Shown here: in pieces, positions 10,262 to 63,849 of the stretch
Position numbering within the stretch: the stretch's first letter is position 1
How the letters are laid out: every line of letters begins with the position of its first letter
DNA from: an uncultured Legionellales bacterium
GTDB lineage: Bacteria; Pseudomonadota; Gammaproteobacteria; JAHCLG01
Direction of reading: 5' to 3'
Length of the DNA stretch: 64,000 nucleotides
Assembly (NCBI GenBank): GCA_964352985.1
Contig: CAYGUK010000005.1
Location: 125-64,124 of the forward strand
Notes under the pieces: model-generated
Seen by the model: only the letters and a program-made list of their open reading frames with translations
Database searches by the model: none
Told to the model about the DNA's origin: nothing
Made by a program: the position numbers and the translations under genes

Positions 10262-10292
10262 ATTGACATAAGCGGCGGGATCTTTCATTCGT
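10255..10292. repeat. Left terminal inverted repeat of the Tn3-family transposon (38 bp, begins GGGG).
   Basis: GGGG-initiated 38-mer. The tnpA stop codon abuts its inner end, as in many Tn3-family elements. Confidence 0.75.
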
Positions 10293-22518: not shown

Positions 22519-25500
22519 TATTATCCTTATTTTTTATCGTCATTTTTTTATGTCGTTTGTTATGCGTTAGATAATACAAGCAAGGTAAAACAAACAACGT
22601 GAGTAATGTTGATGAAATTATTCCGCCTATAACGACAGTTGCCAATGGGCGTTGTACTTCTGCACCCGTACCCGTGGATATTGCCATCGGAATAAAACCA
22701 AGCGATGCAACGAGTGCTGTCATTAATACTGGGCGTAATCGTTGTAGCGCACCTTGAAAGACAGCCTCTTTGATAGGGACATCTTGCTGAACAAGATTTT
22801 TGATAAAGGTTATAATCACAAGGCCATTTAATACTGCGACACCGGATAATGCGATAAAGCCCACACCTGCTGAAATTGATAACGGAATACCACGCAACAA
22901 CAGTGCAAATACGCCACCTGTTAACGCCAAGGGAACACCGGTAAAAACGATGATACTATCGAGCACACTACTCAATGACATGAACAGTAGTACAAAAATT
23001 AATATTAATACAATGGGGACAACAATCATTAATCGTTTTGTTGCAGTCGCTAACTGTTCAAATTGTCCACCCCAGGTGATCCAATAGCCACTCGGTAGTG
23101 ATAACAATTTATCAATTTTGACTTGTGCTGCATCAACAAACGATCGCAAATCTCTGCCTCTTACATTCGCAGTCACTACGATTCGACGTTTACCATTTTC
23201 TCGACTAATTTGATTGGGGCCAGCTTTTACGGTGAATGTTGCGATTTCATTAAGTGGAATGAAATGTCGATTACCATCGTCATTAAGTGGTAAGTCAATG
23301 TATATTTTTCTTAATATATTTTTATCTTTTCTCGCTTTGTCTGATAAACGAACAGTCAAATCAAAACGCCTGTCGCCTTGATAAATTTTACCCACTTCTC
23401 TGCCACCGAGTGCTGTTGCTATGGTATTTTGAACTTGTGACATGGTTAAACCATAACGCGCTAATAGCTGGCGATCGACATGAATGGTTATTGTCGGTAA
23501 TCCGGTTACCTGCTCTACTTTGACATCAGCAGATCCTTTGATTTGTTTTAATATTGCGGCTACTTTATTAGCATTTTCAAGTAATACTTTCATATCATCA
23601 CCAAATATTTTAACCGCAACATCACTTCTAACACCAGAAATCAATTCATTAAATCGCATCTGGATCGGTTGAGTGAATTCATAATTATTACCCGGTAATT
23701 GCTTTAATGCGGTTTGTAGTTGATGGATGAGTTCTAATTTTGAAAGTTTGGGATTTGCCCACTGACTTCTTGGTTTTAAAATCACAAAGGTATCAGCCAC
23801 ATTCGGTGGCATTGGATCGGTAGCCACTTCAGCGGTGCCAATTTTCGAGAACACATGGCTCACTTCAGGAAATTTTAACAACCTTTTTTCTACAAGTTCT
23901 TGCATTTTTACTGATTGCGTTAGGCTGGTCGATGGCGTTCTCATGGCATGAAGGGCAATATCACCTTCATCCAAACTTGGAACAAATTCACCACCCATCG
24001 TTGATGCAACCAACGCTGCAATAATTACAATAACAATGGCAATAATTAAACTTATCCAAGGTGATTTCAAACTCAAACGTAGGCTAGGTTTGTAAATCTT
24101 TTGACAACTTCGAACAATGAGGTTGGGTTTTTCTGTTATTTTTCCTGTTAAAAATATCCCAATCGCGGCAGGTACAAAGGTCAGGGATAATACAAGTGCC
24201 GAGAGCAAGGCTAGAATAACCGTTTGCGCCATTGGTATAAACATTTTTCCTTCTACACCGCTTAACGTTAGGATTGGAATATAGACAATGGTAATAATTA
24301 AAACACCAAATAAGCTAGGCTTAATGACTTCCTGACTTGCTGATAAGGTAATACTGAGTCTTTCTTTTAATGGTAATGATAAACCATGGGATTGTATTCC
24401 TAACTGTTTAATACAATTTTCAACAATTATCACTGCGCCATCGACGATTAAGCCAAAATCCAATGCGCCCATACTCATTAGATTGGCACTGATTTTATAA
24501 TGCACCATCCCTGTAATTGTCATCAGCATTGACAGTGGAATAACAGCAGCGGTGACTAAAGCCGCACGAATATTCCCTAGAAATAAAAATAAAATGACAC
24601 AAACTAATAATGCGCCTTCTAGTAAATTATTTTTAACTGTATTTATTGTTGCATTTACTAATTGCGTGCGATTATAAACAGGGGTTGCAATAACACCTTT
24701 TGGCAATGTTTTATTAATCTCTTTTAAACGTTTTGCAATTCTTTTTGCAACGACGCGGCTATTATCGCCCATTAACATTGAAACCGTTCCAATGACTGCC
24801 TCATGTCCTGCACTTGTTCCCGCGCCACTGCGAAGCGCATGACTAATGGTGACATTTCCTAAATCAGAGATACGAAGACTGACACCGCGATGTGAACGAA
24901 CAACAACATTACCTATTGCTTGCTCTGTTTTTAATTGCCCCGGTATACGAATTAGAAATTGCTCACCGTGTTGCTCAATATAACCAGCCCCCATATTATC
25001 ATTATTCTTTTCTAATGCTTGCTCAATATCATGTAATGTTACGCCATATTGGATCAATTTTTTAAGATCAGGGGTAACTTGATATTGTTTTTCGTAACCA
25101 CCAATAGCATTTACCTCTGCAACTCCTGGAAGGTTTCGCAATTGTGGCCGAATAATCCAATCTTGGATCGTGCGTAATTGCATCGGTGTATACGGTTTCC
25201 CTTTTTCATTTATCGCGTCGGGCTTTGCTGTTACCGTATACATGAAAATCTCACCTAATCCCGTTGAGATTGGCCCAAGCTGTGGTTCAATGCCATCAGG
25301 CAATTGGCTTTTTATTGATTGCAATCGTTCAGTGATTAATTGCCTAGCAAAATAGATATTGGTTCCATCTTTGAATACAACGGTAACTTGCGATAACCCA
25401 TAGCGCGAAAGCGAACGTGTATAATCTAATTTAGGCAAACCACTCATTGCCACTTCAATAGGATAGGTGATCCGTTGCTCCACTTCATAAGGGGTTAAAC

Positions 25501-25666
25501 CGGTTGCTTCTGTATTAATCTGTACTTGCACATTAGTGATATCGGGGACAGCATCGATAGGGAGTCGTGTGAAATTATAAATCCCTAAAACGATAATCCC
25601 AAGGATAGCTAATAAAATAAGCCAACGTTGTTTAAGAGAAAATTGTAAAATCCGTTCTATCATCAT
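22511..25666 (-). CDS. Heavy-metal efflux RND transporter, CzcA/CusA family, pump 2.
   Basis: 1051 aa. 'DFGLIVDGAVIIVENC' motif. 12 TM plus large periplasmic loops. Confidence 0.85.
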   Translation of the reverse strand: MMIERILQFSLKQRWLILLAILGIIVLGIYNFTRLPIDAVPDITNVQVQINTEATGLTPYEVEQRITYPIEVAMSGLPKLDYTRSLSRYGLSQVTVVFKDGTNIYFARQLITERLQSIKSQLPDGIEPQLGPISTGLGEIFMYTVTAKPDAINEKGKPYTPMQLRTIQDWIIRPQLRNLPGVAEVNAIGGYEKQYQVTPDLKKLIQYGVTLHDIEQALEKNNDNMGAGYIEQHGEQFLIRIPGQLKTEQAIGNVVVRSHRGVSLRISDLGNVTISHALRSGAGTSAGHEAVIGTVSMLMGDNSRVVAKRIAKRLKEINKTLPKGVIATPVYNRTQLVNATINTVKNNLLEGALLVCVILFLFLGNIRAALVTAAVIPLSMLMTITGMVHYKISANLMSMGALDFGLIVDGAVIIVENCIKQLGIQSHGLSLPLKERLSITLSASQEVIKPSLFGVLIITIVYIPILTLSGVEGKMFIPMAQTVILALLSALVLSLTFVPAAIGIFLTGKITEKPNLIVRSCQKIYKPSLRLSLKSPWISLIIAIVIVIIAALVASTMGGEFVPSLDEGDIALHAMRTPSTSLTQSVKMQELVEKRLLKFPEVSHVFSKIGTAEVATDPMPPNVADTFVILKPRSQWANPKLSKLELIHQLQTALKQLPGNNYEFTQPIQMRFNELISGVRSDVAVKIFGDDMKVLLENANKVAAILKQIKGSADVKVEQVTGLPTITIHVDRQLLARYGLTMSQVQNTIATALGGREVGKIYQGDRRFDLTVRLSDKARKDKNILRKIYIDLPLNDDGNRHFIPLNEIATFTVKAGPNQISRENGKRRIVVTANVRGRDLRSFVDAAQVKIDKLLSLPSGYWITWGGQFEQLATATKRLMIVVPIVLILIFVLLFMSLSSVLDSIIVFTGVPLALTGGVFALLLRGIPLSISAGVGFIALSGVAVLNGLVIITFIKNLVQQDVPIKEAVFQGALQRLRPVLMTALVASLGFIPMAISTGTGAEVQRPLATVVIGGIISSTLLTLFVLPCLYYLTHNKRHKKMTIKNKDNND

Positions 25667-45170: not shown

Positions 45171-45362
45171 CTATGATTTACTCTGATTCTTACGACTATC
45201 ATTTTTTTTTAATCTTACTTCTTCCCGATCGATTTCTAACTCTTTTGGCGCAATAAAGCCTACTTTTACATAATTATCATCCACACTTAAAACCTGTAAT
45301 TTGCAATTATCACCAATCCACGCAGCCTTTCCTTGCCTTAATGTAAACACTAACATTTTCAT
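45171..45362 (-). CDS. CsrA/RsmA-family RNA-binding regulator paralog (LvrC-like, as found on Legionella integrative elements).
   Basis: 63 aa. 'MLVFTLRQGKAAWIGDNCKLQVLSVDDNYVKVGFIAPKELEIDREEV' aligns to the CsrA fold (L-x-L-T-R..GE...IGD.I...V......V..GI.AP....I.R.E). Confidence 0.75.
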   Translation of the reverse strand: MKMLVFTLRQGKAAWIGDNCKLQVLSVDDNYVKVGFIAPKELEIDREEVRLKKNDSRKNQSKS

Positions 45363-45557
45363 CTCTCCTTTATTAATCTGAAACTCATGACAATCGATAT
45401 TTATTATTTACTCGTCATCAAAAAGCATTACTTTTTATAAATCCTTACTATGGGACACCCTTAAAAAACCATCGGGATGATTTCAATATCACCCCGAAGT
45501 TTTTCTTCTTTAAGCAAGCCAACTGAGTGCTAAAAATCATAAGTAAACAGCTCATTG

Positions 45558-45752
45558 TTACAGTTCACCCTGTTTTTTCTTATACCAAGACAAATGAATT
45601 GATATCTTCTCAGATAATTCTCTTATATCATCAGAACTAGGATAACTGACACTTAATAATAATTGATGACTTATTCTGTTAATCCAATCATGAATATCTT
45701 TCGCATTACGCCAATAATCATCAACGCTTTCTTGTTTGTTTTTAAATATCAT
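45558..45752 (-). CDS. Small hypothetical protein.
   Basis: 64-aa ORF between the LuxR-HTH gene and the csrA-like gene. Confidence 0.25.
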   Translation of the reverse strand: MIFKNKQESVDDYWRNAKDIHDWINRISHQLLLSVSYPSSDDIRELSEKISIHLSWYKKKQGEL

Positions 45753-45835
45753 GTTTCACCACTATGGAAATAATTTATATGAATTTTACCAGGAATAAAT
45801 TTTATTACTTTGCGTAAAACGCAAGGTTGAAAAAT

Positions 45836-46156
45836 TTATTGGAAATTTTTTTCGTAGATTCTTTTGTAAAAATTATATAATTCGAAGGGAAGTTTAAACA
45901 TTGACTCTTTTTGAAATTTTTCTTTTATTTCTTTCATGTGATATTGGATTGTCCTGGGTGAAAGATTTAGTTCATTCCCCACTAGGATAGGTTCGCCGTA
46001 TTTTAGAAGTAACAACCCTATATCAGCTTGTCTATGCGTTAATTTTTCATTGAGATAGTTTGATCCAAGCTCAAACTCAATTGCTTTATTTTGAAAAAGA
46101 AAACTAAATATATGATTAAAATTCGATTCGAAGTCTTCCATTTTATGCTTTCTCAC
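45836..46156 (-). CDS. LuxR/GerE-type HTH transcriptional regulator.
   Basis: 'LTHRQADIGLLLLKYGEPILVGNELNLSPRTIQYHMKEIKEKF' is a LuxR-C-type HTH. Confidence 0.5.
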   Translation of the reverse strand: MRKHKMEDFESNFNHIFSFLFQNKAIEFELGSNYLNEKLTHRQADIGLLLLKYGEPILVGNELNLSPRTIQYHMKEIKEKFQKESMFKLPFELYNFYKRIYEKNFQ

Positions 46157-47030
46157 TCAGTATTTTTGATATAGCGTCCTTAATTTTAATTATTTCGTTG
46201 GAAAAATATTTGGCATCATCTAATCGGCCACTTTTTTCAGCAAAGGATTTATGGATTTTTAGTGAGTTAATATCAGAACTCTTTTTCCGAATAATTTCGC
46301 ACATTTTTTTATTTTCAATTTCCAGCTTACTCTCGGCTATGTTTAATATCTGAACGGGTGTACTCCAAACGCCATCTTTAATTTGTTTTAATATGGCATT
46401 TAGTTTTCGTTTAAAATCATTTCCAATCAGCGTAAACGCATTTTTATCCAGAATAACATAAACGATTTCTTCATATAGCCTTTCTATTATTTCATCATCA
46501 CTCACATAGCCTGATATTTTTCTCTTAATCAGACTTTTTTGACTATCTGTTAATACCCCACCTTTGAAGTCAATAGCTGAATTACACACATCAAGTGCAA
46601 CAGCTGCATTACATTGCTTTGTTGCTGTTATTTCTTTGTTCTTTTTTTCTTTGTATATATTATTATTTTGTAGTTGCGGGTTATCCTGATCCGGGAAATC
46701 CGGATCTTGTTCACCATGATCCGGGAAATCCGTTTTTGGTATTTCATAAACATCGTAGGTTGTTTTTGTAATTCTGCCTTTTTCGTCTCTTAATTTTGAC
46801 TCAACAATATAACCGTGTTTTTTAAGTTCGCTTATACCGCTATACACTGCATCTCGTCCATCGGGTGTTTTTTCAATTATATTTTTAATGCTAATCACCC
46901 AATCTTCGGGTAAGCTCAGAAGGTAAAGAAGGATCCCCCTTGCCTTGAATGATAATCTTGGATCTTGAGGACATGTGTTTGAAACAATTGTAAAATTTCT
47001 TGTCCGTTTTTTTACTTTAAAAGTTGCCAT
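46143..47030 (-). CDS. Winged-helix DNA-binding protein (replication-initiator/LvrA-like) with an internal acidic tandem repeat.
   Basis: N-terminal 'DPRLSFKARGILLYLLSLPEDWVISIKNI...SKLRDEKGRITKTTYDVYE' resembles the RepA/DnaD-N winged-helix. The repeat TGATCCGGGAAATCCG x2 at 46685-46732 encodes a DFPDxD repeat. Confidence 0.4.
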   Translation of the reverse strand: MATFKVKKRTRNFTIVSNTCPQDPRLSFKARGILLYLLSLPEDWVISIKNIIEKTPDGRDAVYSGISELKKHGYIVESKLRDEKGRITKTTYDVYEIPKTDFPDHGEQDPDFPDQDNPQLQNNNIYKEKKNKEITATKQCNAAVALDVCNSAIDFKGGVLTDSQKSLIKRKISGYVSDDEIIERLYEEIVYVILDKNAFTLIGNDFKRKLNAILKQIKDGVWSTPVQILNIAESKLEIENKKMCEIIRKKSSDINSLKIHKSFAEKSGRLDDAKYFSNEIIKIKDAISKILSEKA

Positions 47031-47390
47031 TCCTACACCAGTTTTTCCATATTAAAGGTTATTGTCCATAATTTGATTTGTTAATTTCATGATAGGTTAC
47101 TTATACAACCTATAATTCAAACGGTAATTTTTATCTCTATTATCAAATCGGTTGCGTCAGAAAAGTATGTTTAGGCATCGTTTCTTTCCATTAGTTACCT
47201 GTATTAAAAGATTATCATCACGAAAATGTAATAGCAATTAATTTTTATACCTGTATTACAGTTATAAAAATTTTGTTAAAATTCACTCCATTATAGCTAT
47301 TCGAAAAAATCGCAATTGAATTAGTTTTCTATTGTCTTTACGTCAGGGTTGACTAAGTCAAATTTTAGGTTGAAAATTTAATTCAATCTT

Positions 47391-48509
47391 ATGAATAAAT
47401 TAGGGTATTTCTTAGAAATGTATAATGAAAAAACAACAATTCGTGATCGATCACCTTGTCAAACATTAGCGATAATAAAGCCTTATATAAAACAAGCTGG
47501 TATTACACGAATTGCCGATATAACACAATTAGATACTATCGGTCTCCCTGTTTATACGTGTATAAGGCCGTTATCACGAAGCATAAGCACATCTCAAGGA
47601 AAAGGTCTAACCAAAGAATTAGCAAAATGCAGTGCCTATATGGAAGCCATAGAGCATTACTTTGCAGAAATTGTGAAATATGATTTTTATGGTAACGAAC
47701 TAGAAAATAAAGAAAAAAAATTCATAACGCCAGCTGATTTAGAATCAAATAATTTAAAATTAAAATATGATAATTCCACCTATATCGGCTGGAAAAAAGT
47801 TACAAATTTAAAGAATCATAGTTACTGTTATGTTCCGTTAGACGCAATATCTTTAGATTTAACAGTTAATAAAAAAACATCGAGTAAAACTTCATCAACA
47901 GGATTAGCATCCGGTAATAACCTAAACGAAGCTATATATTATGGATTACTTGAGGTTATAGAAAGGATCTATACAAAAAGATTTTTTAATCTTACAAAAT
48001 CAGAAAAGTTCGATTCAATAATAGAGATCAAATCTATAACTGATGATAACTGCCATTTATTATTTAAAAAATTAAAAAATAACAATATTAAAGTGACTAT
48101 ATTTAATATAACAAACAGATTAGAAATTCCTACATTTATGTGCTTACTAGAATCTCACGATAAATATAGCAATCATTATAATTACTATGGAATAAGTTCA
48201 AATTTAAATAGTGATATCGCTTTACAGCGATCAATTGTAGAAGCAATCCAATCAAGATTAACAGGGATTGCAAGCAGTAGAGATGATATTGATTATAAAA
48301 CAACAGCTAATACATCACCAATTAGTATCAACACAACAGGAAAACCATATAACTATCAAAACACAGAATTCACTTCATTTAATGAAGCTATCAATAAGAT
48401 ATTAAATAACGATTATTTTCATAATACCGATTTCTATTATTGCGATCTATTACCTAAGAACTCAGATATTTCAGTCATTAAAATTATTTCTTCCGGGGAT
48501 ATATCATGA
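47391..48509 (+). CDS. ycaO: YcaO-domain protein (ATP-dependent amide-backbone activating enzyme; cyclodehydratase/thioamidation family).
   Basis: 'SISTSQGKGLTKELAKCSAYMEAIEHYFA' matches the YcaO ATP-binding signature (S.GKG.T...A..SA.GEAIERY). 372 aa, minimal YcaO size. Confidence 0.85.
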   Translation: MNKLGYFLEMYNEKTTIRDRSPCQTLAIIKPYIKQAGITRIADITQLDTIGLPVYTCIRPLSRSISTSQGKGLTKELAKCSAYMEAIEHYFAEIVKYDFYGNELENKEKKFITPADLESNNLKLKYDNSTYIGWKKVTNLKNHSYCYVPLDAISLDLTVNKKTSSKTSSTGLASGNNLNEAIYYGLLEVIERIYTKRFFNLTKSEKFDSIIEIKSITDDNCHLLFKKLKNNNIKVTIFNITNRLEIPTFMCLLESHDKYSNHYNYYGISSNLNSDIALQRSIVEAIQSRLTGIASSRDDIDYKTTANTSPISINTTGKPYNYQNTEFTSFNEAINKILNNDYFHNTDFYYCDLLPKNSDISVIKIISSGDIS

Positions 48510-49795
48510 ATGAAATTATTGTCTTTTGTGGTTCAACCATTAAAAGAAGTGAAGTTCTTAAAATTTTACCCTTAGCAAATTGCCTGTCACCTATAAAAAA
48601 TGGGGATATTATTAAAGCAGTACGTTTGAAGCCAAAGATTATAATAATTATAGACGGATACTTTGCGAATCACATTTCGATTTGGCATAAAGAAATTTTA
48701 TTCGCCATTTCATGTGGTATAACTGTATATGGCGCCAGTAGTATGGGAGCACTTAGAGCCTCTGAATTATCTCAATTTGGAATGATTGGCTTTGGAGAAA
48801 TATATAATTTATACGATCAAAATATCATTGATGGCGACGATGAAGTTGCCGTTTCAATATATAAGACTAATGATAATATTCATACATCAATACCTCTAAT
48901 TGACATAAGGTTCACATTAGAAAAACATCAACATTCATTCACAGAGAAAGAAGTCGATTCATTTATTAGAGATATTAAAAGTATCGGTTATCCTCTTAGA
49001 GAATGGGATTATCTTTTGACAGATAAGAATTTCACATGCTATAGGACATTAATAAACTATATAAAAGAAAACTACATTAATCAAAAATTAATCGATGCAG
49101 AAAATTTATTAAATCACGTAAAAAATAATGCTAATGTGATAATTAAACAAAACATAGATACTTCTGATATAATAACTGTATATTTTAGAAAACTGTATCG
49201 TCACTATATTAATGAACCATTTGATCATGCTTATGATTGGTTACCTAAAGAAGAAAAAATGCTTTTCGGTATTAAATCAAAGAATAAATATTATGAATAT
49301 TTTCACGGCTTGAGTATACTTATACACATATATTACGACTTAAAAAAAACAAATAAAACACCCTTGAAATTTATAAGTGAAATAAAAGAACGCGCATCAA
49401 CAACAAACACAGGAGTTGAAATAAAGTCTTCTATTAATGATTACTATAATATCGAGACGAACAAGAGCGATAGTAAACAACTAGATATTAACAATATGTT
49501 TTATTTTTTAATATTAAACATAAAAAATCTTTTAAATAATTCAGGCTATTACTTAAACGCAAATTATGTAAGTGAAATTACCTTAAAATTTAGAGTAAGT
49601 AAAAAATTATTAACTAAAAACGAATTTCAAAACTGGGTCTCATCTAAAAAATTTAATAAAAAACAAACTAAAGAGTTTTTTCTGATTTATAGTTTTGTAG
49701 AATTATTAAACAATAAAATAGACAATATTGAATTCAATATGAAATATAATAAAGTAAATTGGTTAAGGCATTTAGTTGAAACACTAAGTGATTAA
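48506..49795 (+). CDS. tfuA: TfuA-like protein with a C-terminal extension of about 200 aa.
   Basis: 'IIIIIDGYFANHISIWHKEILFAISCGITVYGASSMGALRASELSQFGMIGFGEIY...DDEVAV' matches the TfuA domain. There is a 4-bp overlap with ycaO. 429 aa, whereas ~200-260 aa is typical. Confidence 0.85.
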   Translation: MNEIIVFCGSTIKRSEVLKILPLANCLSPIKNGDIIKAVRLKPKIIIIIDGYFANHISIWHKEILFAISCGITVYGASSMGALRASELSQFGMIGFGEIYNLYDQNIIDGDDEVAVSIYKTNDNIHTSIPLIDIRFTLEKHQHSFTEKEVDSFIRDIKSIGYPLREWDYLLTDKNFTCYRTLINYIKENYINQKLIDAENLLNHVKNNANVIIKQNIDTSDIITVYFRKLYRHYINEPFDHAYDWLPKEEKMLFGIKSKNKYYEYFHGLSILIHIYYDLKKTNKTPLKFISEIKERASTTNTGVEIKSSINDYYNIETNKSDSKQLDINNMFYFLILNIKNLLNNSGYYLNANYVSEITLKFRVSKKLLTKNEFQNWVSSKKFNKKQTKEFFLIYSFVELLNNKIDNIEFNMKYNKVNWLRHLVETLSD

Positions 49796-49902
49796 TGACT
49801 GTCAGGATCAATTTTATTCATACTAGCAGCATCGAAATAATCTTCTCCGATCATAGACTCATCTATATCATCAATAATTAATTCAAACGCATCATCTTGC
49901 AT
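49792..49902 (-). CDS. Candidate small acidic peptide ORF (36 aa, MQDDAFELIIDDIDESMIGEDYFDAASMNKIDPDSH), convergent with tfuA and overlapping its stop codon.
   Basis: Hand translation of the minus strand. It is below the 60-aa cutoff of the ORF track. No RBS could be confirmed. Confidence 0.15.
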   Translation of the reverse strand: MQDDAFELIIDDIDESMIGEDYFDAASMNKIDPDSH

Positions 49903-50077
49903 CACTATATCCTCTAGACAAATTAAGACATAAATTATGAGTATTCCTTACTATATACATAATTTACTTTGACTTTTTATACTTTAATGGCTGAAATTTA
50001 TCCAAAAATTTCATATATCGCTGTATTTTAACATAAAAACCCGAATTGGTATATATTTATCATATACATATGTCGGT

Positions 50078-51427
50078 TTATTTATTTGATATTCTTATAC
50101 ATCCATGAAAAAACAAGGAATGGATGGGAAAAGATAAATCTTTACTAAGTTCCCCTTTATATGGCATGTTACTAAATCTGTTATCTTCATCAATCAACTC
50201 TAAAATATCACCATTAATATCATCAGTATCTGATTTTGGATGAAAGAAATCAAATTTAACGCTGTTAATAATGTTATATAAAGGAGTATTGGTAATATCA
50301 CAATGAAATTTTTTATCTATGACAAAATCACAAAAGTTATCCATCAATTGTTTTAGTGCCTTAAGCTGTTTTACAGTTTGTTTCGTTGTTGCTTTTTTGA
50401 CGGTTTCATAAAAAAATGTGGGTTTTTGTAATGAATAATAAACAGGTAATTTACCGCTATAATTGCATAGCTCCATAAAGACTGGTAGATGAAATCTGAT
50501 TTTATAGATATTTAAAAATACATCTATTAATTCACTCACTGGGCCAGAAATATTAGAAGTAGCGGGAATATAACCAGGTGCTTCACCCAGCGCAATATTA
50601 AATAATTGTTTAGCTATATGTAAAGTTTCAGCGTCATTACGGACAACTAAAGGTTGCTTTAATAAAAATGTTGACCAAATCATTTCATGGATATATGAAA
50701 AACGTTCGAAATCTGTTGCATTCCAAATTCTATAAAGCAAACTTCTGTTAAACCAAACTGTATCGTTATTAAGATCAACAAAATCTTTACTAAAAAATAA
50801 TATCTCATTTGACCATTCAATTTCAGTATTAGTACTATTTATTATGTGTTCAAGTAACTCCCATTGATCCAATAAATCATTAGGAGTTAAATTATCAGGA
50901 ATATTTAATCGATCAACTAATCGTTTATTGCCGATTGCATCTTTAGTGCTAGGTAAAAGAATCAATGATCGACAACCTGATTTTGTAGAATAAAGCTCTG
51001 GTACGAAATAAGGGTGTGGCTTATCATCAAAAATAGATAACAGTGAAAATAATTGACCTGGCCTTTGTAACATAAACGGCATAACTTTCGATGTATATGC
51101 CATATGTGATTCCGCAGTATTTTTACTAATAATTCCAAATGGAATAGTCGACCATCTGTATTGCAATAACTTGGCGATTTTTGAGTTTTTAGACAGTTCT
51201 GAAAAAGGAGTAATGTTACCTTCAATATTTAATTGGAATTCCCCTCTTTTTATTATGTCAGCTCCATAAGGATATGTAACTTTAATTAACTTAAAGTTAT
51301 CAATACCCTTAACATCTTCAGCCTCATTATAAAACCAAGGATTAATTTTTTTTACCTGAAGCTTTACATCAGACCATGTAACAACTTCCAAGCTATTTAT
51401 TTTTGACATTATTAACCAACCATCCAA
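50078..51427 (-). CDS. Hypothetical protein (449 aa), co-transcribed with the upstream transporter gene.
   Basis: ORF overlaps the transporter gene's 3' end by 35 nt. No recognisable motif. Confidence 0.4.
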   Translation of the reverse strand: MDGWLIMSKINSLEVVTWSDVKLQVKKINPWFYNEAEDVKGIDNFKLIKVTYPYGADIIKRGEFQLNIEGNITPFSELSKNSKIAKLLQYRWSTIPFGIISKNTAESHMAYTSKVMPFMLQRPGQLFSLLSIFDDKPHPYFVPELYSTKSGCRSLILLPSTKDAIGNKRLVDRLNIPDNLTPNDLLDQWELLEHIINSTNTEIEWSNEILFFSKDFVDLNNDTVWFNRSLLYRIWNATDFERFSYIHEMIWSTFLLKQPLVVRNDAETLHIAKQLFNIALGEAPGYIPATSNISGPVSELIDVFLNIYKIRFHLPVFMELCNYSGKLPVYYSLQKPTFFYETVKKATTKQTVKQLKALKQLMDNFCDFVIDKKFHCDITNTPLYNIINSVKFDFFHPKSDTDDINGDILELIDEDNRFSNMPYKGELSKDLSFPIHSLFFHGCIRISNK

Positions 51428-52808
51428 ATCTAGATAATATTATAAATATAATTATCGAAATGCCAAATATGATATACACATACGTATAAAGTTTATAACT
51501 ATCACTTAGAATTAAACTGTTTGATAAAGTGTTTGTATGACTAAATTTTATTAGATAGTAAGCACAGACAGCTGCTACTGAAGATACAAATTGTATTAAT
51601 CCCATATAAAAACCTTGTTTACTAGAACTTTTTGCAATATCCGAAACTTGAGATTGTAAAGTTGGGAATATTAAAAATTCACCAACTGCAATGAAGCTAA
51701 TACTAATAAAAACCCAATAAACTGGTATTCTTTCACTCTCACTATATAAATAGTGAATATTTCCCAAAATAAAAAATGCAATAAATATAGCTACAAGACC
51801 AAAAACTAACATGTATGAAGTATTAAGTTCTCTTCTTGAAAATAATTTAATTATACCCGTACCAAATAACATATTAACAATCGGATCAACCATTAAGGCT
51901 ATTAGTGGTGGAAAATATATGCCAAAAATAGTTTCATTAACATGGTTATTTAAGAAAATAGAAAACTGGTTATAATATATAGCTATTGCTAACCAATATG
52001 GAAAACAACAAAGAAAAAGCAATAATGAAAATTTAAGGTATTTGCTATTTTTCGTGGAGAATGAATCTTTTAAAACAAGACAAACACAAACGATAAATAA
52101 CCCTAAGATGAAGTATCTTGTATAATCCCTAAACTGCATTAATAAGTAACAAAATAATAAGAAGAATATAATAAAACTATACTTTACAAAAACATTCCAA
52201 TTACTTGTATCATTACTATGGATATCTACAATTTTACGACTACTAAGAGATAATAAATTTAAAATTAAACATAATGTTCCAGCTATTAAAATTAAAGCAC
52301 TATGGCAATATATACCACTTATTAGAATGATTAATCCAATTAATGCTCCTAAGTTTAGCATCACCTGGTATATATTATTTGCTTGGTGTCGTTTGTTACT
52401 TTCACTGTAATGTTTATTTATGAATAAGTTTAAATTAATACAATACAAGGCCGCACCAACAATAAAGAAGGTTAATGCTATGATTACTAATTTCTTATTG
52501 AACATTGAAAATAGTGAAAAACCTAGACATGAAAGTATTACGCCAAATAACATTAACTTTTTATGGCTTCCTAGTTTCGGTGATATAACACCAAGTAATA
52601 AATTTGAAATATAAAATAATGCTGAAGCAGTTGTACTAACTGAGTAAGCGTACATTAGTGAAAAACCATTCTCTTTAAGTAGTAATGATAAGCCAACCTT
52701 AATTACAATATATCCAGCCATAAAAAGGGATTCAGCAAACATTAATCTTTTGAAGCTGTCATTATCAAAACTTAATATCAAAATGTATCCTATTTTTTTT
52801 ATTACCAC
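51393..52808 (-). CDS. Polytopic membrane transporter, MFS-like (about 12 TM).
   Basis: 471 aa, hydrophobic throughout, with roughly 12 predicted helices in two halves. No specific subfamily motif identified. Confidence 0.5.
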   Translation of the reverse strand: MVIKKIGYILILSFDNDSFKRLMFAESLFMAGYIVIKVGLSLLLKENGFSLMYAYSVSTTASALFYISNLLLGVISPKLGSHKKLMLFGVILSCLGFSLFSMFNKKLVIIALTFFIVGAALYCINLNLFINKHYSESNKRHQANNIYQVMLNLGALIGLIILISGIYCHSALILIAGTLCLILNLLSLSSRKIVDIHSNDTSNWNVFVKYSFIIFFLLFCYLLMQFRDYTRYFILGLFIVCVCLVLKDSFSTKNSKYLKFSLLLFLCCFPYWLAIAIYYNQFSIFLNNHVNETIFGIYFPPLIALMVDPIVNMLFGTGIIKLFSRRELNTSYMLVFGLVAIFIAFFILGNIHYLYSESERIPVYWVFISISFIAVGEFLIFPTLQSQVSDIAKSSSKQGFYMGLIQFVSSVAAVCAYYLIKFSHTNTLSNSLILSDSYKLYTYVYIIFGISIIIFIILSRFGWLVNNVKNK

Positions 52809-53111
52809 TTTAAATGATAAATAGTTAAAACTTAAATATTTACAGCTAGTGTGTAATAGTTAATCACCTTTATAATAGCTGCACAAATATTATCATATTC
52901 TGTTAATTGATCTATAGCTTTGTGATACAAATACTAATTTTAATTCATTTATGTAAATATTTTTTTCGCTTACCTATTGTAATTTGTTCATAATTTGAAC
53001 AACAATAAACTAACTTGTGACCATGTCAAAAATCGCTTGTTGATTCTTTGTGAAGAAATCGATATATACACAGCTAATTAAATATTAAAAAATAGTTAAA
53101 AGGAAAGAGAA

Positions 53112-54029
53112 TTGAAAAGTGTAAAAGTCATCGGTCTTGTGATGTTTTTTCTTTTGTCTACTACATCATTTTCGTGGAATTTTCGAGGCCATGTTGTCAT
53201 TGCTCAAATTGCTTATAGCCAACTTTCAACAACACAACAACAGGAACTCGATCAACTTGCAGAAAAGATCTATGAAAGATTGCCAAAAAAAGCAAAGGCG
53301 ACGATAGCAAAACAATATCCTGGAGCGAATCGTTTTGCACAGCTTGCGTTTTTACCTGACTACTGGCGACTGTGGAAAATTAAAACTTTATTTCACAAAT
53401 TCGATTCACCGATCCCGAGTGATCTCGTTTCAATCGAAAATCAGTCGACTAAATCATGGCATTTTATTAACCTAGATTTCCCGAATACTGGAAAATGCCA
53501 GATCACAAAAAAATACAATATTGAATGGGCGATCCCTGTTTTAATTAATGATATTAAACTTGCAAAGAACGAAAACGAAAAAGCATTACTTTTAATTGAG
53601 CTTTCTCATTTAGTCGGTGATGCGCATCAACCTTTGCATGGCTATTCACGTGTAACGAGTAGTTGTGAAGAAGATCAAGGTGGGAACAAAGTTTGTTTGT
53701 ATCAAAGTAGGAATGGACGTTGCTCGCTCAGCTTACATGCACTGTGGGATAGGGGAGTAGGTTATATTCGTAATACTCGTAAAATTAAGCAGCTTGCAAA
53801 AACAATTAAAATTAAATTTCCAGAGTCATCATTATCGAGTTATTTAAATAATCTAAATCCTAGTGATTGGGTAAATGAAAATTATCATTATTTAAGTTTT
53901 ATCTATTCAGCAAAATCTGAGCCTTTAACAAAACAATATAAAAAAGAAGGTAAATCAATTGCTGAGAAGCAAATGGCTATAGCTGGGTATCAATTAAGTA
54001 AAATAATTGGTAGTATATTTGGAAATTAA
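53112..54029 (+). CDS. Secreted S1/P1-family zinc-dependent nuclease.
   Basis: Signal peptide, then 'WNFRGHVVIAQIAY' (the mature N-terminal W and H are zinc ligands). 'HLVGDAHQPLH' is the S1/P1 signature. Confidence 0.75.
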   Translation: MKSVKVIGLVMFFLLSTTSFSWNFRGHVVIAQIAYSQLSTTQQQELDQLAEKIYERLPKKAKATIAKQYPGANRFAQLAFLPDYWRLWKIKTLFHKFDSPIPSDLVSIENQSTKSWHFINLDFPNTGKCQITKKYNIEWAIPVLINDIKLAKNENEKALLLIELSHLVGDAHQPLHGYSRVTSSCEEDQGGNKVCLYQSRNGRCSLSLHALWDRGVGYIRNTRKIKQLAKTIKIKFPESSLSSYLNNLNPSDWVNENYHYLSFIYSAKSEPLTKQYKKEGKSIAEKQMAIAGYQLSKIIGSIFGN

Positions 54030-55910: not shown

Positions 55911-56984
55911 ATGAAGGTTCAACAAGTGAGAAATTATCACGGTTTAACGCTTTGGATAGTTATTGATGATAGCTATTTGCCCGTAGCACCTATTACAGAG
56001 TTTATAATCTATCTTGCCAATACTGAGAAATCACCATTTACCATTCGATCTTATGCGAACCATTTAAAGCTATTCTGGGATTATGTAGTAAGCAATAAGA
56101 TTAATTGGCAAACAATTAAGTTAAATCAATTAGCAAGCTTTATAGCGTATCTCAGACGCCATAATGTTGATGATACGGTTATTGATATTACACAAAAAGC
56201 TGATAGGAAAATATCGACTGTGAACACGATTTCATCGTGTGTATGTAGTTTTTACCAATATCATAATCAAGTTGGTCACACTTCAATAGATTTCACAGAA
56301 TCCACATTTTATAGTGGTAGTCGTTATAAAGGCTTGTTGCATCATCTTTATCGAGGAAAACCGACGCGTAAAAAAATATTAACCTTAAAAAATGTTAAAG
56401 AAGCACCAAAAACAATTACAACAGAGCAATTTAATAAACTAATAAATAATTGTTGTAATAAACGTGATATTTTCCTTGTGACATTATTATTTGAAACAGG
56501 ATTAAGAATTGGTCAAGCATTAGCTTTAAGACATGAAGATATCGTTAGCTGGGATAATATTATTAATATTAAGTATCGTTATGATAATTTAAATAACGTT
56601 AGAAACAAATCTAAAAGACAAAATATTATCCATGTATCAAATAGTTTGTTAAACGCCTATACAGATTATGTGATTTCATTAGAGCAAAGCAAAATTGGTG
56701 AATATGTTTTTATTAACTTAAATGATTATACGCCTTTACGATATTCAGCTGTTAGAAAGCTATTTTCAAGATTCACTAAACAATGTGGTTTCAAGGTAAC
56801 ACCACATATGCTTCGACACAGTCATGCTACACAACTAATTGAGGCTGGCTGGGATAGCTCATTAATACAAAAGAGACTTGGCCATTCAAGTGTTCAAACA
56901 ACCATTAATACATATGCGCATATTGATAACAAAACTTTAAAACAAGCCTACAAAGAATATCAAAATAGCAAGGAGGTAAAATAA
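55911..56984 (+). CDS. Tyrosine recombinase (TnpA-like, Tn554 family).
   Basis: 'HMLRHSHATQLIEAGWDSSLIQKRLGHSSVQTTINTYAHI'. 357 aa. Confidence 0.8.
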   Translation: MKVQQVRNYHGLTLWIVIDDSYLPVAPITEFIIYLANTEKSPFTIRSYANHLKLFWDYVVSNKINWQTIKLNQLASFIAYLRRHNVDDTVIDITQKADRKISTVNTISSCVCSFYQYHNQVGHTSIDFTESTFYSGSRYKGLLHHLYRGKPTRKKILTLKNVKEAPKTITTEQFNKLINNCCNKRDIFLVTLLFETGLRIGQALALRHEDIVSWDNIINIKYRYDNLNNVRNKSKRQNIIHVSNSLLNAYTDYVISLEQSKIGEYVFINLNDYTPLRYSAVRKLFSRFTKQCGFKVTPHMLRHSHATQLIEAGWDSSLIQKRLGHSSVQTTINTYAHIDNKTLKQAYKEYQNSKEVK

Positions 56985-58396
56985 TGACTATTCAAACAAC
57001 AAAGCTAAAATCATTAAGTATTTCTTTTAATGATAAACAGGAAAAACTATTGAATAAAAATAGATGGCATGTAAGTGATATTAATTTAGCTGCTGATAAG
57101 ACTCATAGCACATATTACTTAGACTTTAATAAAATAAGCATTGATTGGTTAAGACAATGCGCTAAAAAGTTCGTGATATTTCAATCTGTGACAAAATCTT
57201 TAGCATCATGCAAAGCGTATATCACGTCCCTATTCCATTTTAATAGTTATTTACTAACATTAGATATCATTATTAAACAAGAAAATGTTAATAGACAACT
57301 GATTGTGGGATATATTGAATATCTTTCCGCATCTAAACTTGGTGTTGTGGCCAAACAAATAGCGCTTATTAATTTACGAACATTTCACCAAGTTGTATTA
57401 CAAGAAGAGTGGTTAAGTTGGCCAGAGAGGCCACTAATCTATTCCAGTGATCTACCAAAAAATATTAATAATTACCCAAGATTTATACCGGAAACTGTAA
57501 TCAAACAGTTATTGAAACATATTGTTAATTTACCAGAATATCTCCAAGCAATAGTTATTGTCTTATTGGAAACTGGTCGAAGAGTCAGTGAAGTAGTTGC
57601 CCTACCCGTTGATTGCTTAGAGCAAGATTCTGATAAAGATTGGTTATTAAAAGTTTATGAAAGAAAAATGAAACGTAAACGATTATTACCTATCTCTGCT
57701 GAATGTTTAAAAGTGATAAAAAATCAACAAAAGAATATTAATAAACAAAGTGATTCGACTTATTTATTTCCATCTCGCCGTAAAGATTCTAGTAGTTCAC
57801 ATATTACCGCTAGATACATCAATATGGTATTAAATAAATTATCAGATAAATACAATATTGTTGATGATAATGAAAAACGTTGGCAATTTTCATCTCATCA
57901 GTTTCGCCATACTGTAGGAACGAGAATGATCAACTCTGGTGTTAGTCAATTTGTTGTTCAGAAGTATCTAGGTCATGAATCACCAGAAATGACAGCAAAA
58001 TATGCTTATATCCATGATGAAACAATGAAGAAAGCATATTTTGATTTTAAGAAAAATATGATTGATATTAATGGTGAGATAGTCAGAAATGATAAGTCAA
58101 TGCTTGATGTTCAGTGGTTAAAAAAGAACATCACTACACAAGCGCTGCCTAACGGATTATGTGGCTTGCCACTAACACAAAATAAATGTCCTCATGCTAA
58201 TGCTTGCCTAACATGTTCTAATTTTAGAACAAGCAAGCAATATATTAATCAACATAAAAATCAACTTAAAGAAACTGAAATAATTATTGAAAATGCCAAT
58301 AAAAATGGTTGGACAAGAATAGTTGAAATGAATACTACTGTCAAAGAGAACTTAACTAATATAATTGAAACTCTTGAGGAGCAAGAGAATGAATAA
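56984..58396 (+). CDS. Tyrosine recombinase (TnpB-like, Tn554 family).
   Basis: 'FRHTVGTRMINSGVSQFVVQKYLGHESPEMTAKYAYI'. 470 aa. Its start overlaps the stop of the upstream recombinase gene. Confidence 0.8.
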   Translation: MTIQTTKLKSLSISFNDKQEKLLNKNRWHVSDINLAADKTHSTYYLDFNKISIDWLRQCAKKFVIFQSVTKSLASCKAYITSLFHFNSYLLTLDIIIKQENVNRQLIVGYIEYLSASKLGVVAKQIALINLRTFHQVVLQEEWLSWPERPLIYSSDLPKNINNYPRFIPETVIKQLLKHIVNLPEYLQAIVIVLLETGRRVSEVVALPVDCLEQDSDKDWLLKVYERKMKRKRLLPISAECLKVIKNQQKNINKQSDSTYLFPSRRKDSSSSHITARYINMVLNKLSDKYNIVDDNEKRWQFSSHQFRHTVGTRMINSGVSQFVVQKYLGHESPEMTAKYAYIHDETMKKAYFDFKKNMIDINGEIVRNDKSMLDVQWLKKNITTQALPNGLCGLPLTQNKCPHANACLTCSNFRTSKQYINQHKNQLKETEIIIENANKNGWTRIVEMNTTVKENLTNIIETLEEQENE

Positions 58397-59974: not shown

Positions 59975-60574
59975 CTAAAAAATATCTTCCGAAATTTTAC
60001 CCAATCGCACCGGATTATCTTCCACGTATTTCGCGGTCATCGTAATTGAGCGATGTCCCATTAATGTTGAGACCGCTTTGATATCAACGCCCTTCTCGAT
60101 TAAGCGTGTTGCAAATGTGCGTCGCCCGGAATGAGAGCTTGCCCCTTTAATACCTGCCAGTTGATATAAATGATACAACAATTGTTGTATCGAGTTTGGT
60201 GAAAATCGCCCTGCTTTTTGTGATAAAAATAATGGCCGCTCTGGATGGTAAGGAAAATCGTGTTTTGGTTTTGTTTCTTCTATGTAAGTAGCTAAGGCTT
60301 TTCGTAACTTGGAATTAGTGAGATAAAGAAAGCGAGCACTCTCCCCTTTTACTTGCAAGCTATTCATAAACGCTTGGTCATAGATTTTTTGTTGTACACA
60401 ATCAAAAACATCACCCAGGTTGAGCAATGCCAGTTCTTTTGCGCGTAATCCCAACCCAAAAGAAAAATACAGTATTGTGATATTACGGTTTGCGTGTTGC
60501 CCAGATTGCGCAACACGCAAAAGTCGTTTAAATTCATCGTCGGTTAATACTTTCGCTTTCCCTTGCTTGGCCAT
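59975..60574 (-). CDS. Short tyrosine recombinase (catalytic domain only; FimB/ResD-like size).
   Basis: 'LRAKELALL' (box I Arg), 'SSHSGRRTFATRLIEKGVDIKAVSTLMGHRSITMTAKY' (H-x-x-R ... H ... Y). 199 aa. Confidence 0.7.
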   Translation of the reverse strand: MAKQGKAKVLTDDEFKRLLRVAQSGQHANRNITILYFSFGLGLRAKELALLNLGDVFDCVQQKIYDQAFMNSLQVKGESARFLYLTNSKLRKALATYIEETKPKHDFPYHPERPLFLSQKAGRFSPNSIQQLLYHLYQLAGIKGASSHSGRRTFATRLIEKGVDIKAVSTLMGHRSITMTAKYVEDNPVRLGKISEDIF

Positions 60575-62802: not shown

Positions 62803-63849
62803 ATGAAATCTTCTAATTATGGAAATTTGAATACCCAACCCAAAATAGCAATTGCAAATGTAGCAGACTTTCTAGGTGTAACCACTCAAGCTGTGCATAA
62901 ACAATTAAAAGACCGTAATATCGTCTGTCCAAGAATGGGAAATAAATTATTTATTAATTTTGAAATCGCAAGAAAATTACTAGGGATTAATTTTCACAAG
63001 AAGAAAATAGTAGGGCAGATTGTTAAGGGTGGTACAGGTAAAACTACAGCGATTGATAATATTTCTAGTTGTGCTAATTCATATGGCGCACGTGTATTAA
63101 AAATAGATGCTGATCCTCAAGGAAATTTAACTGACGCAAATGGAGTTGATGCAGAAGAATTACCAGTGCTCATTGACGCCATTAAAAATGATGTAACTAT
63201 AAGCGAGTGTATTGTTAATCTTGCGCCTGGAATGGATTTGATCCCAAGTAGAATAGAAAATGTAATTTTAGATAATGAAATTGTTAATAAAAGATTACCG
63301 TTGGATAAGCTATATTCAAATCTTTTACATGAAATTGAAGATAATTACGATTTTATTTTTATTGATTGTCCTCCAACTATGGGACAGGCTGTTACAGCTG
63401 CAAGTCTATATGCAGATATAATACTAGCACCTTTGAATCCTGATCAGTTTAGTGCAAAAGGTCTTAAAATACTTAGGAATGAAATTAAGACATTGAATGA
63501 CAATTTTTTTAAGGATAAAGCTAAGAAAATTGAATATAAGATTTTTCTTAACAAATTTAGTGGTAAAACATTGCTTTCTGATAAAGCTCTTTATTCCTTA
63601 CTTAGCGATCCCGATTTGGATAATAGATTACTGCCAAATACAATACAGTATACCCAGGAGATCCCAAATATTACTGATGAAAGTAAAAACCTTTTTTCAG
63701 TATTAAAGAAATCAGTAGTTCGTGATGACTTTGATCAAATAACTAAAAGTTTACTCGATATCGAACCTGTAAAATTATCTAAAAAGGATAATAATACTGT
63801 CAGCATAAAGAATAGTTTTGAAGTCCAAGAAGAGGTTGCTAGCGCATAA
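62803..63849 (+). CDS. parA: ParA/SopA-family partition ATPase with an N-terminal HTH (type Ia-like).
   Basis: Deviant Walker A 'KGGTGKTT'. N-terminal 'VADFLGVTTQAVHKQLK' HTH. 'FIDCPPT' (Walker B region). 348 aa. Confidence 0.85.
   Translation: MKSSNYGNLNTQPKIAIANVADFLGVTTQAVHKQLKDRNIVCPRMGNKLFINFEIARKLLGINFHKKKIVGQIVKGGTGKTTAIDNISSCANSYGARVLKIDADPQGNLTDANGVDAEELPVLIDAIKNDVTISECIVNLAPGMDLIPSRIENVILDNEIVNKRLPLDKLYSNLLHEIEDNYDFIFIDCPPTMGQAVTAASLYADIILAPLNPDQFSAKGLKILRNEIKTLNDNFFKDKAKKIEYKIFLNKFSGKTLLSDKALYSLLSDPDLDNRLLPNTIQYTQEIPNITDESKNLFSVLKKSVVRDDFDQITKSLLDIEPVKLSKKDNNTVSIKNSFEVQEEVASA

Follow-up and report, generated by a model that had tools for sequence, protein, structure and literature searches.

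A probable reduced copy of a recurring YcaO–TfuA gene cluster on a conjugative element of a Legionellales bacterium

Described YcaO–TfuA systems and the gene pair of the Legionellales element

The nearest sequence and structure relatives of the proteins described here come from methanogens, where adjacent ycaO and tfuA genes are responsible for the thioglycine of McrA and TfuA delivers sulfide from a thiocarboxylated carrier (ThiS-COSH). This ThiS/TfuA sulfide route is established (PMC13063428; PMC9576775). YcaO and TfuA also occur together, sometimes accompanied by ThiS/ThiF (PMC9576775) and frequently by a transporter, in clusters for thioamidated RiPPs (thioamitides, thiovarsolins and thiopeptin-type compounds), and YcaO–TfuA pairs of Actinobacteria act on small precursors (PMC6511847; PMC8120280). 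Within the Pseudomonadota, YcaO of E. coli, which thioamidates uL16, offers a precedent for modification of a folded protein (PMC13063428), but it belongs to a different, longer clade that lacks TfuA.

The window, by which we mean the whole 64-kb stretch (64,000 nucleotides) of DNA from an uncultured Legionellales bacterium analysed here, contains ycaO and tfuA as adjacent genes on the same strand (Table 1). Their lengths and their 4 bp overlap, as read from the ORFs, are those given in the initial annotation. YcaO matches PF02624 with E=1e-43 (150.4 bits against a cutoff of 25.7; residues 69-367 cover profile positions 1-321 of 325), and its closest solved structure is M. jannaschii YcaO MJ1094 (6pe3, E=4e-20). 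The ATP-site motifs S-Q-GKG...SAYMEAIEHY and GLASGNNLNEAIYYGLLEVIER match those of MJ1094 in the alignment, in which the ATP/Mg2+ motifs GKG...SAxMEAIE and GLASGNNLxEAIxxxxLExIER are shared; the triplet first described as E-R-Y is E-H-Y in this protein. TfuA matches PF07812 over residues 50-165 (E=6e-36), the NCBIfam model ThioGly_TfuA_rel covers residues 3-207, and the AF2 model superposes on TfuA 6xp8 across 202 residues.

The top NCBIfam models for both proteins concern McrA thioglycine, and the nearest structures are MJ1094 and a Methanosarcina TfuA. Neither protein reaches the equivalog cutoff for thioamidation of the McrA glycine, YcaO scoring 166.9 bits against 365 on TIGR03266 (methan_mark_1) and TfuA 179.7 bits against 235 on NF033432, so that they are related to the methanogen enzymes without being equivalogs. 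Adjacent and co-oriented ycaO and tfuA genes were found in all 13 related loci examined. The pair is thus a TfuA-associated YcaO module of predicted thioamide type, as had been proposed for it. In contrast to the methanogen systems it is bacterial, is carried by a mobile element, has no McrA, and is neighboured by a transporter and a protein that we designate U449.

A further difference from methanogen TfuA is an additional conserved helical domain of ~200 aa. The limits of the TfuA fold, as given by the profiles and the superposition on 6xp8, leave ~220 residues beyond it, and structure prediction places these in a confidently folded, all-helical domain. The extra C-terminal residues noted in the initial annotation are real, but they are not peculiar to this locus, since a long TfuA is usual in this clade and no fewer than 32 of the 120 top TfuA homologue clusters share the domain. 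The suggestion that this extension might itself be thioamidated is not favoured, because it is a conserved, folded helical domain.

The setting of the locus

The cluster was described as AT-rich cargo on an element with a type IV secretion system (T4SS), and this is borne out by the GC content (0.34-0.40 within the T4SS block but 0.24-0.29 between 47 and 53 kb) and by upstream genes for VirB4, VirB6/TrbL, VirB10/TrbI, VirD4 and VirB11. At the DNA level positions 46000-53000 found no match in the plasmid collection by megablast, and VirD4 has plasmid matches at 25% identity only. A regulator block that includes a CsrA paralog precedes the pair, and the homologous cluster on the Legionella plasmids pLPP and pPC1000_1 likewise has CsrA and HTH genes beside it. 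The spacer between the block and ycaO contains promoter-like hexamers, a palindrome at 47240-47272 with arms of 16 nt and a direct repeat, TACCTGTATTA, both found by a repeat search. A scan of positions 46900-53200 detected no terminators, and promoter-like sites in that interval are fewer than in shuffled sequence.

Table 1. Features of the YcaO–TfuA locus and its surroundings (window coordinates)
Feature	Position	Strand	Description
Regulator block	45171..47030	-	CsrA paralog (45171-45362), 64-aa ORF, LuxR-like (45836-46156), HTH_36 (46143-47030); Pfam
Spacer, HTH_36 gene to ycaO	47031..47390	.	Divergent promoter/operator spacer; palindrome and direct repeat
24-aa Cys-containing ORF	47167..47241	+	Unsupported as a gene; overlaps repeat/palindrome region
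ycaO	47391..48509	+	372 aa; TfuA-associated YcaO, predicted ATP-dependent backbone-amide activation; PF02624
tfuA	48506..49795	+	429 aa; TfuA fold residues ~1-205, conserved all-helical C-terminal domain ~225-429
36-aa acidic ORF	49792..49902	-	SD-like AGAGGA 7 nt upstream of ATG; unsupported as a conserved gene
U449	50078..51427	-	443-449 aa, probable ATG start at 51409; conserved cluster partner
MFS transporter	51393..52808	-	471 aa; 3' end overlaps U449 start; PF07690 E=7e-16

Downstream of ycaO-tfuA, and convergent with it, lie the genes for U449 and an MFS transporter, whose overlap suggests translational coupling. An anti-phage defence role was considered and dropped, as PADLOC defence models matched none of the four proteins YcaO, TfuA, U449 and MFS.

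A recurring cluster with a conserved partner

We compared 14 distinct YcaO–TfuA loci: the window, L001 (where the pair lies 3 kb from a ribosomal-protein/rpoA operon), L003, L004/L023, L005, L021, L048-L051, L053-L055 and the P0010 locus. In its full form the cluster reads MFS – U449 – ThiS-like – ThiF/rhodanese – YcaO – long TfuA – POT, sometimes with an ATP-grasp ligase, and MAGs of Coxiellaceae, Thiotrichales and Francisellaceae encode it. An MFS/POT transporter is present in at least 11 of the 14 loci, ThiS plus ThiF/rhodanese genes in 11, and the ATP-grasp gene in four. U449 was found in 10 of the 14, including the P0010 locus, where it was scored from protein size and absence of a Pfam match rather than from DNA; it is absent from the available sequence of L001, L053 and L055. 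The P0010 locus has exactly the layout of the window, with YcaO-TfuA convergent with U449-MFS, and carries ThiS-ThiF upstream. The window has both an adjacent U449 homologue and an MFS/POT transporter, and we regard its locus as probably a reduced four-gene copy (ycaO, tfuA, U449 and MFS) of this uncharacterised thioamidation cluster, which recurs in Gammaproteobacteria of the Legionellales/Thiotrichales type.

U449 matches no Pfam or NCBIfam model, and a CRP-like β-roll is its only recognisable element and its only structural relationship. Its family comprises ~1450 representative clusters, with near-invariant polar residues at E100, R147, H390, D409 and C437. The window protein is 30-43% identical to the corresponding neighbours in L003, L004, L005, L049, L050 and L054. 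The MFS protein is 33% identical to that encoded upstream of U449 in L004 and shows distant similarity to POT proteins (22% identical to PTR2 of L003, E=3e-10; phmmer against the pLPP POT, E=2e-5). Most members of the U449 family are solitary, in housekeeping contexts, and four loci possess an MFS-U449-ThiS-ThiF module with no YcaO-TfuA within 10 kb; the function of U449 is therefore not strictly bound to thioamidation.

More diverged representatives are found on the Legionella plasmids pLPP, pLPL, pLLO and pPC1000_1, in the order POT – U449-like – ATP-grasp – ThiS – ThiF – YcaO – TfuA. As in the window, the cluster lies on a conjugative element beside a CsrA paralog and HTH regulator block. 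Identity to the window proteins is 37% for YcaO, 44% for TfuA and 22% for U449 (hhalign 99.8%). The Legionella TfuA, of 344 aa, has a shorter and different extension, and these clusters encode ThiS, ThiF and ATP-grasp proteins, with a POT and a LOG-family gene also in pLPP, whereas the window has the MFS transporter alone. The association of U449 with the pair is, judging by these alignments, one that survives deep divergence, and the initial suspicion that the 449-aa neighbour is linked to YcaO-TfuA holds in the 10 of 14 loci where homologues adjoin the pair, Legionella plasmids included. The accompanying statement that nothing of the kind had been described for this element family was too strong: in 2011 Gomez-Valero et al. 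depicted ycaO/tfu, with 'unknown function', in F-type conjugative elements of Legionella (PMC3218107), and pLPP carries a homologous cluster. A literature search by the locus tags of the pLPP cluster found nothing.

Genes for ThiS, ThiF and ATP-grasp are missing from the entire 64-kb window (best HMM E=0.18), and the spacer upstream of ycaO contains no ThiS remnant. The absence of the sulfur-carrier genes that most relatives have was overlooked in the initial annotation. Because of it, this copy may depend on its host or be losing function. The stronger version of the latter, a decaying, non-functional remnant that has lost ThiS, ThiF and POT, would accord with the contrast to the 11 of 14 loci that have ThiS and ThiF and with the very low GC content of the region, yet we consider it unlikely. 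All four ORFs are intact and full length with every family-invariant residue retained, and the ycaO/tfuA and MFS/U449 overlaps are still in place. L001 and L053 likewise lack ThiS and ThiF, which makes supply in trans plausible, and YcaO is able to use free sulfide in vitro (PMC13063428).

Candidate substrates and significance

Two small ORFs had been put forward as precursor peptides, and both exist in the sequence. Their lengths are those expected by chance: among 2000 dinucleotide shuffles of each spacer, the upstream one yielded an ATG ORF of 24 codons or more in 1342 (67%) and the downstream one an ORF of 36 codons or more in 587 (29%). Neither has a homologue across more than 50 related loci or on plasmids, and a tblastn search of plasmids with the acidic peptide gave a single match, to Streptomyces, at E=6. 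In L004 (Coxiellaceae) the U449 and tfuA stop codons are ~4 bp apart, so there is no space for an ORF of the 36-aa type, and the 24-aa ORF overlaps the operator-like repeats. The proposed neighbourhood comparison did reveal one conserved small ORF, which encodes no precursor peptide; its product, with SGG at the end, is a sulfur carrier of the ThiS type, and the ORF is present in ~11-12 of the 14 loci and missing from the window.

It is accordingly most improbable that a cryptic local RiPP precursor is thioamidated here and its product exported by the MFS pump, despite the good SD-like sequence of the acidic ORF, the presence of a transporter and the actinobacterial precedent (PMC6511847; PMC8120280). 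Clusters for thioamidated RiPPs are defined by a conserved precursor gene, and here there is no conserved precursor, leader peptidase or further tailoring enzyme, the partner being a folded protein of 450 aa. From the pattern of conservation, a small precursor encoded at the locus is apparently not what the pair modifies.

A second kind of target would be a housekeeping protein whose gene lies elsewhere, such as a ribosomal protein, with U449 and MFS as mere neighbours. The genes for E. coli YcaO and its target uL16 lie far apart (PMC13063428), and the L001 pair lies near ribosomal genes as mentioned above. However, such adjacency is seen in only one of the 14 loci, YcaOs of the uL16 type are never TfuA-associated (PMC13063428), and the window YcaO, which has a TfuA partner, reaches only 22 of the 700 bits required by NF040716, the model for the E. 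coli type. Carriage on plasmids and ICEs with dedicated transporters also argues for a self-contained module, and we judge this alternative very unlikely.

The accessory genes of the relatives point to di/tripeptide chemistry, to judge from their sequence similarities: the POT is DtpA-like, and the ATP-grasp protein is weakly similar to the amino-acid ligases BacD, DdaF, PylC and Ddl. Dipeptide-antibiotic clusters of the bacilysin BacD/BacE type combine an L-amino-acid ligase with an MFS exporter. The weakly BacD/DdaF/Ddl-like ATP-grasp in four related loci, and MFS/POT as the most constant neighbour, resemble this arrangement, but neither the window nor most long-TfuA loci have the ATP-grasp. 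We know of no YcaO that acts on dipeptides; the YcaO substrates known to us are peptides of ~10 or more residues or proteins, not di- or tripeptides. Our best guess, held tentatively, is that the substrate may be a short peptide handled by MFS/POT, with U449 as the partner, specific to this cluster, that binds or processes it.

Nearly as likely as the short-peptide substrate, if somewhat unlikely in itself, is that U449 is thioamidated, in the manner of McrA and uL16: a folded protein of 450 aa would gain a backbone thioamide, and the transporter would serve the function of U449 itself. U449 is the sole recurring neighbour of this YcaO-TfuA clade outside transport and sulfur relay, and is often the first gene of a U449-ThiS-ThiF-YcaO-TfuA operon. 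The absence of a conserved precursor peptide, the protein substrate (McrA) of the nearest characterised relatives and the precedent of uL16 (PMC13063428) are in line with such a role, and the frequent solitary occurrence of U449 is as expected for a protein with its own function. On the other hand, L053 and L055 contain YcaO-TfuA and a transporter but no U449, and the MFS-U449-ThiS-ThiF modules that have no YcaO-TfuA speak against U449 as the substrate. Its tight coupling to MFS (and to ATP-grasp where present) is more like that of an enzyme-transporter pair, and its conserved polar residues resemble an active site. Taking both roles together, a mobile thioamidation system might have U449 either as its dedicated target or as its catalytic partner.

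Family membership, conservation of the cluster and the lack of a conserved precursor are shown by the sequences, and chemistry, sulfur route and substrate are inferred. By analogy with the characterised methanogen system, ThiF–rhodanese would thiocarboxylate the ThiS-like carrier, TfuA would hydrolyse ThiS-COSH and pass sulfide to YcaO, and YcaO with ATP would activate a peptide backbone amide for conversion to the thioamide. Most relatives of the window cluster have dedicated ThiS/ThiF; in the window, since both are missing, the host would have to provide them in trans.

To our knowledge, McrA and uL16 are the only natural protein targets of backbone thioamidation, in addition to a few RiPP classes. 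More than 1000 proteobacterial YcaO–TfuA clusters are still orphans (PMC8120280). One of these orphans is now a defined system, with a fixed gene set, no conserved precursor, a partner family of 450-aa proteins that match no model, and dedicated transporters. L. pneumophila Paris, which carries pLPP, is culturable and genetically tractable. Thioamidation of U449 or of a transported peptide, if it is demonstrated, would widen the known substrate range of YcaO and assign a function to a cargo module that recurs in Legionella mobile elements beside the regulator block with CsrA. It would add either a third class to the proteins naturally thioamidated on the backbone, alongside McrA and uL16, or a route by which a small thioamide peptide is made without a precursor and exported, one that plasmids and ICEs have spread among Legionella, Coxiella and Francisella-type bacteria.

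The YcaO-TfuA pair and its conjugative setting

The initial annotation recognised ycaO and tfuA as overlapping by 4 bp, which proved correct, and both ORFs match the corresponding Pfam families (see the table below). The pair belongs to a known kind of enzyme and is unexceptional within it. For both proteins the top NCBIfam match is a methanogen McrA-thioglycine model (TIGR03266 at 167 bits for YcaO, and NF033432 at 180 bits over residues 3-207 for TfuA), in each case below the equivalog cutoff. Among solved structures, YcaO comes closest to M. jannaschii MJ1094 (E=4e-20), sharing its GKG…SAxMEAIE and GLASGNNL…LExIER motifs; azoline-forming cyclodehydratases score much lower.

TfuA had been considered unusually long, a view that the homologues do not support, as nearly all members of the best 120 homologue clusters are 340-590 aa and at least 32 of these clusters cover at least 87% of the query at 27-37% identity. 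In an alignment of 31 of these long homologues the extension is conserved throughout, with K194, D197, R363 and L368 invariant and L246, E250, W377 and W419 near-invariant. It is a conserved domain of a TfuA subfamily, and the suggestion that it is a tail acting as the substrate is not favoured.

The description of the region as AT-rich cargo beside a type IV secretion system was confirmed, with a GC content of 0.24-0.29 in the cluster compared with 0.34-0.40 in the block encoding VirB4, VirB6/TrbL, VirB10/TrbI, VirD4 and VirB11. Next come a CsrA paralog, a LuxR-like gene and, just ahead of ycaO, an HTH_36 gene. With a source contig of just 64,159 bp, the window could represent nearly all of a plasmid or excised ICE. 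The element also carries a Tn3-family transposase, two RND efflux pumps of the AcrB type, three genes for tyrosine recombinases (two of which are neighbours), a parA gene and, immediately past the MFS transporter, an S1/P1-family nuclease gene whose product has a hydrophobic N-terminus resembling a signal peptide. A CsrA paralog and HTH regulator block adjoin the cluster in three element types (VirB-type in the window, F-type in plasmid pLPP and ICE-type in plasmid pPC1000_1), which hints that the cluster is regulated by the element's own CsrA system.

Coordinates of features in the window and in related loci
Feature	Location	Strand	Remarks
ycaO	window 47391-48509	+	372 aa; Pfam YcaO across whole domain, E=1e-43
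tfuA	window 48506-49795	+	429 aa; Pfam TfuA over residues 50-165, E=6e-36
U449 gene	window 50078-51427	-	449 aa
MFS transporter	window 51393-52808	-	
24-aa ORF	window 47167-47241	+	upstream of ycaO
Acidic 36-aa ORF	window 49792-49902	-	convergent with tfuA
Palindrome	window 47240-47272		16-nt arms
Direct repeat	window 47196 and 47248		
Candidate operator	window 47196-47272		
Tn3-family transposase, two RND pumps	window 10292-13357, 17079-20189, 22511-25666		
S1/P1-family nuclease	window 53112-54029		
Tyrosine recombinases	window 55911-58396 and 59975-60574		
ParA	window 62803-63849		
CsrA paralog beside HTH block	window 45171-45362; L021 11713-11973; L051 6707-6934		L021, pLPP; L051, pPC1000_1
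87-aa ORF	L001 11299-11562		convergent with tfuA
LOG/TIGR00730 gene	L021 1993-2559		
Split U449-like gene region	L052 8801-12417		pPC1000_2
U449 tandem pairs or nearby duplicates	L008 4-2583; L027 987-3719; L042 7253-13699		metagenomic and MAG loci

A recurring cluster and the U449 family

Neighbourhoods were compared by retrieving contigs that encode TfuA homologues and, from the side of U449 (the family of the window's 449-aa protein), by genome and metagenome scans and plasmid tblastn, all loci being scored by tblastn. The proposed comparison yielded conserved partners; the conserved precursor-like small ORF it was expected to reveal was not found, only a ThiS-like carrier. The recurring order, complete in four loci (L003, L049, L050 and L054), is MFS – U449 – ThiS-like (83-100 aa, C-terminal SGG) – ThiF/rhodanese – YcaO – long TfuA, and a POT/PTR2 transporter gene faces tfuA convergently. 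An MFS/POT transporter is present in at least 11 of the 14 distinct YcaO-TfuA loci, ThiS with ThiF/rhodanese in 11, U449 in 10 (with size and the absence of a Pfam match as the only criteria at the P0010 locus) and an extra ATP-grasp gene in four (L005, L048, pLPP and pPC1000_1). One locus, L001, lacks all of these partners; in L053 just the transporter is present, and L055 matches L003 in synteny except that U449 is absent. The convergent layout of the window, with YcaO-TfuA facing U449-MFS, recurs together with ThiS and ThiF in a Coxiellaceae MAG locus (L004, identical to L023) and the P0010 locus.

Searches of six-frame translations of the 64 kb for ThiS-like (HMM), ThiF and ATP-grasp (phmmer) sequences gave nothing (best E=0.18), so the window holds a trimmed four-gene version without sulfur-carrier genes. 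ThiS and ThiF are also missing from L001 and L053. The four genes are full length, retain the family-invariant residues and keep both the ycaO/tfuA and MFS/U449 overlaps, which argues against simple decay.

A word-indexed search for U449 gave 27 matches. The family is larger than this suggested: when 1.84 billion representatives were searched with a profile, there were 1452 matches at E<=1e-3 (775 at E<=1e-30), the best 150 of which are almost all full-length, single-domain proteins of about 416-481 aa. Among 47 diverse members W12, P90, G145, W199, P290, F433 and G436 are invariant, and conservation reaches at least 90% at Y46, E100, R147, Y302, Y324, H390, D409 and C437; this would fit an active site. 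Most members are solitary in housekeeping neighbourhoods (glycolysis genes, kdpABC, IscS-like/TrhO/MnmA genes) and some form tandem pairs or nearby duplicates. Four loci (L006, L007, L025 and L026) encode MFS-U449-ThiS-ThiF/rhodanese without YcaO-TfuA within 10 kb, linking the sulfur-carrier pair to U449 even where the thioamidation enzymes are absent.

Small ORFs and the possible substrate

Two small ORFs had been proposed as precursors, and neither proposal held. When every ORF of 25-130 aa in the 14 loci was compared all-against-all, the one genuine conserved small protein was the ThiS-like carrier (12 loci); the other apparent families arise from alternative reading frames of ThiF, U449, YcaO/TfuA or tRNA genes. 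No homologue of the 24-aa or 36-aa ORF was found in any examined locus or plasmid, and ORFs of these lengths arise in 67% and 29%, respectively, of dinucleotide shuffles of their own spacers. The 24-aa ORF overlaps a direct repeat (TACCTGTATTA) and abuts a near-perfect palindrome (AATTTTTATACCTGTA t TACAGTTATAAAAATT), both between ycaO and the divergent HTH_36 gene, for which they look like a candidate operator. There is no place for the acidic ORF in L004, where the U449 and tfuA stops lie ~4 bp apart; a good SD-like sequence precedes it in the window, leaving it a small residual probability. In L001, whose YcaO-TfuA pair lies ~3 kb from a ribosomal-protein/rpoA operon, a convergent 87-aa ORF extends 4 bp over the tfuA stop, an arrangement like that of the acidic ORF, with no sequence similarity to it.

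The characterised archaeal system, as quoted in PMC13063428 and PMC8939145, involves loading of sulfur on ThiS by ThiF/rhodanese, hydrolysis of ThiS-COSH by TfuA, and phosphorylation by YcaO of the amide oxygen, which sulfide then displaces. The YcaO and TfuA steps here can be inferred from that system: where present, ThiF/rhodanese would charge ThiS, TfuA would hydrolyse ThiS-COSH, and YcaO would phosphorylate the amide oxygen so that sulfide could take its place. We tentatively favour, at somewhat less than an even chance, a small transported peptide as substrate, in which case U449 would be an enzyme or binding partner specific to the cluster. This is favoured by the transporter, which is the most constant neighbour and POT/DtpA-like in many loci, by the occasional ATP-grasp weakly resembling amino-acid ligases, and by the translational coupling of the MFS and ATP-grasp genes to U449. 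Somewhat less likely is that U449 is itself the modified protein, a reading favoured by the lack of any precursor, the closeness of the pair to protein-modifying archaeal enzymes and the position of U449 as first gene in its operon. The remaining probability is shared by three readings: a housekeeping target encoded elsewhere, a decaying copy, and the small ORFs.

Representation on Legionella plasmids

Diverged U449 homologues occur on 29 Legionella plasmids (21-27% identity across ~97% of the protein), and profile comparison of the window and pLPP proteins gives 99.8% probability (E=1.4e-29). The pLPP order is LOG-family – POT – (HTH and 64-aa ORF on the opposite strand) – U449-like – ATP-grasp – ThiS – ThiF – YcaO – TfuA (344 aa) – 61-aa ORF – CsrA – TraT – tra genes, YcaO and TfuA being 37% and 44% identical to those of the window. 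The LOG/TIGR00730 (Lysine_decarbox) gene directly upstream of POT was seen in no other locus. Another variant U449 context is found on the Legionella conjugative plasmid pPC1000_2, where a split U449-like gene lies beside a SAM-dependent methyltransferase and an MFS transporter, without YcaO.

The catalogue of TfuA clusters in proteobacteria exceeds a thousand (PMC8120280), and a plasmid survey predicted biosynthetic gene clusters on 34% of Legionellales plasmids (PMC10434180). Our literature search turned up no work on the function of this cluster. That Legionella-type conjugative elements carry YcaO-TfuA was known from Gomez-Valero et al. 2011, whose drawing of Legionella F-type elements includes "ycaO" and "tfu", labelled as of unknown function (PMC3218107); the new contribution lies in defining the conserved cluster and, as its partner, the U449 family.
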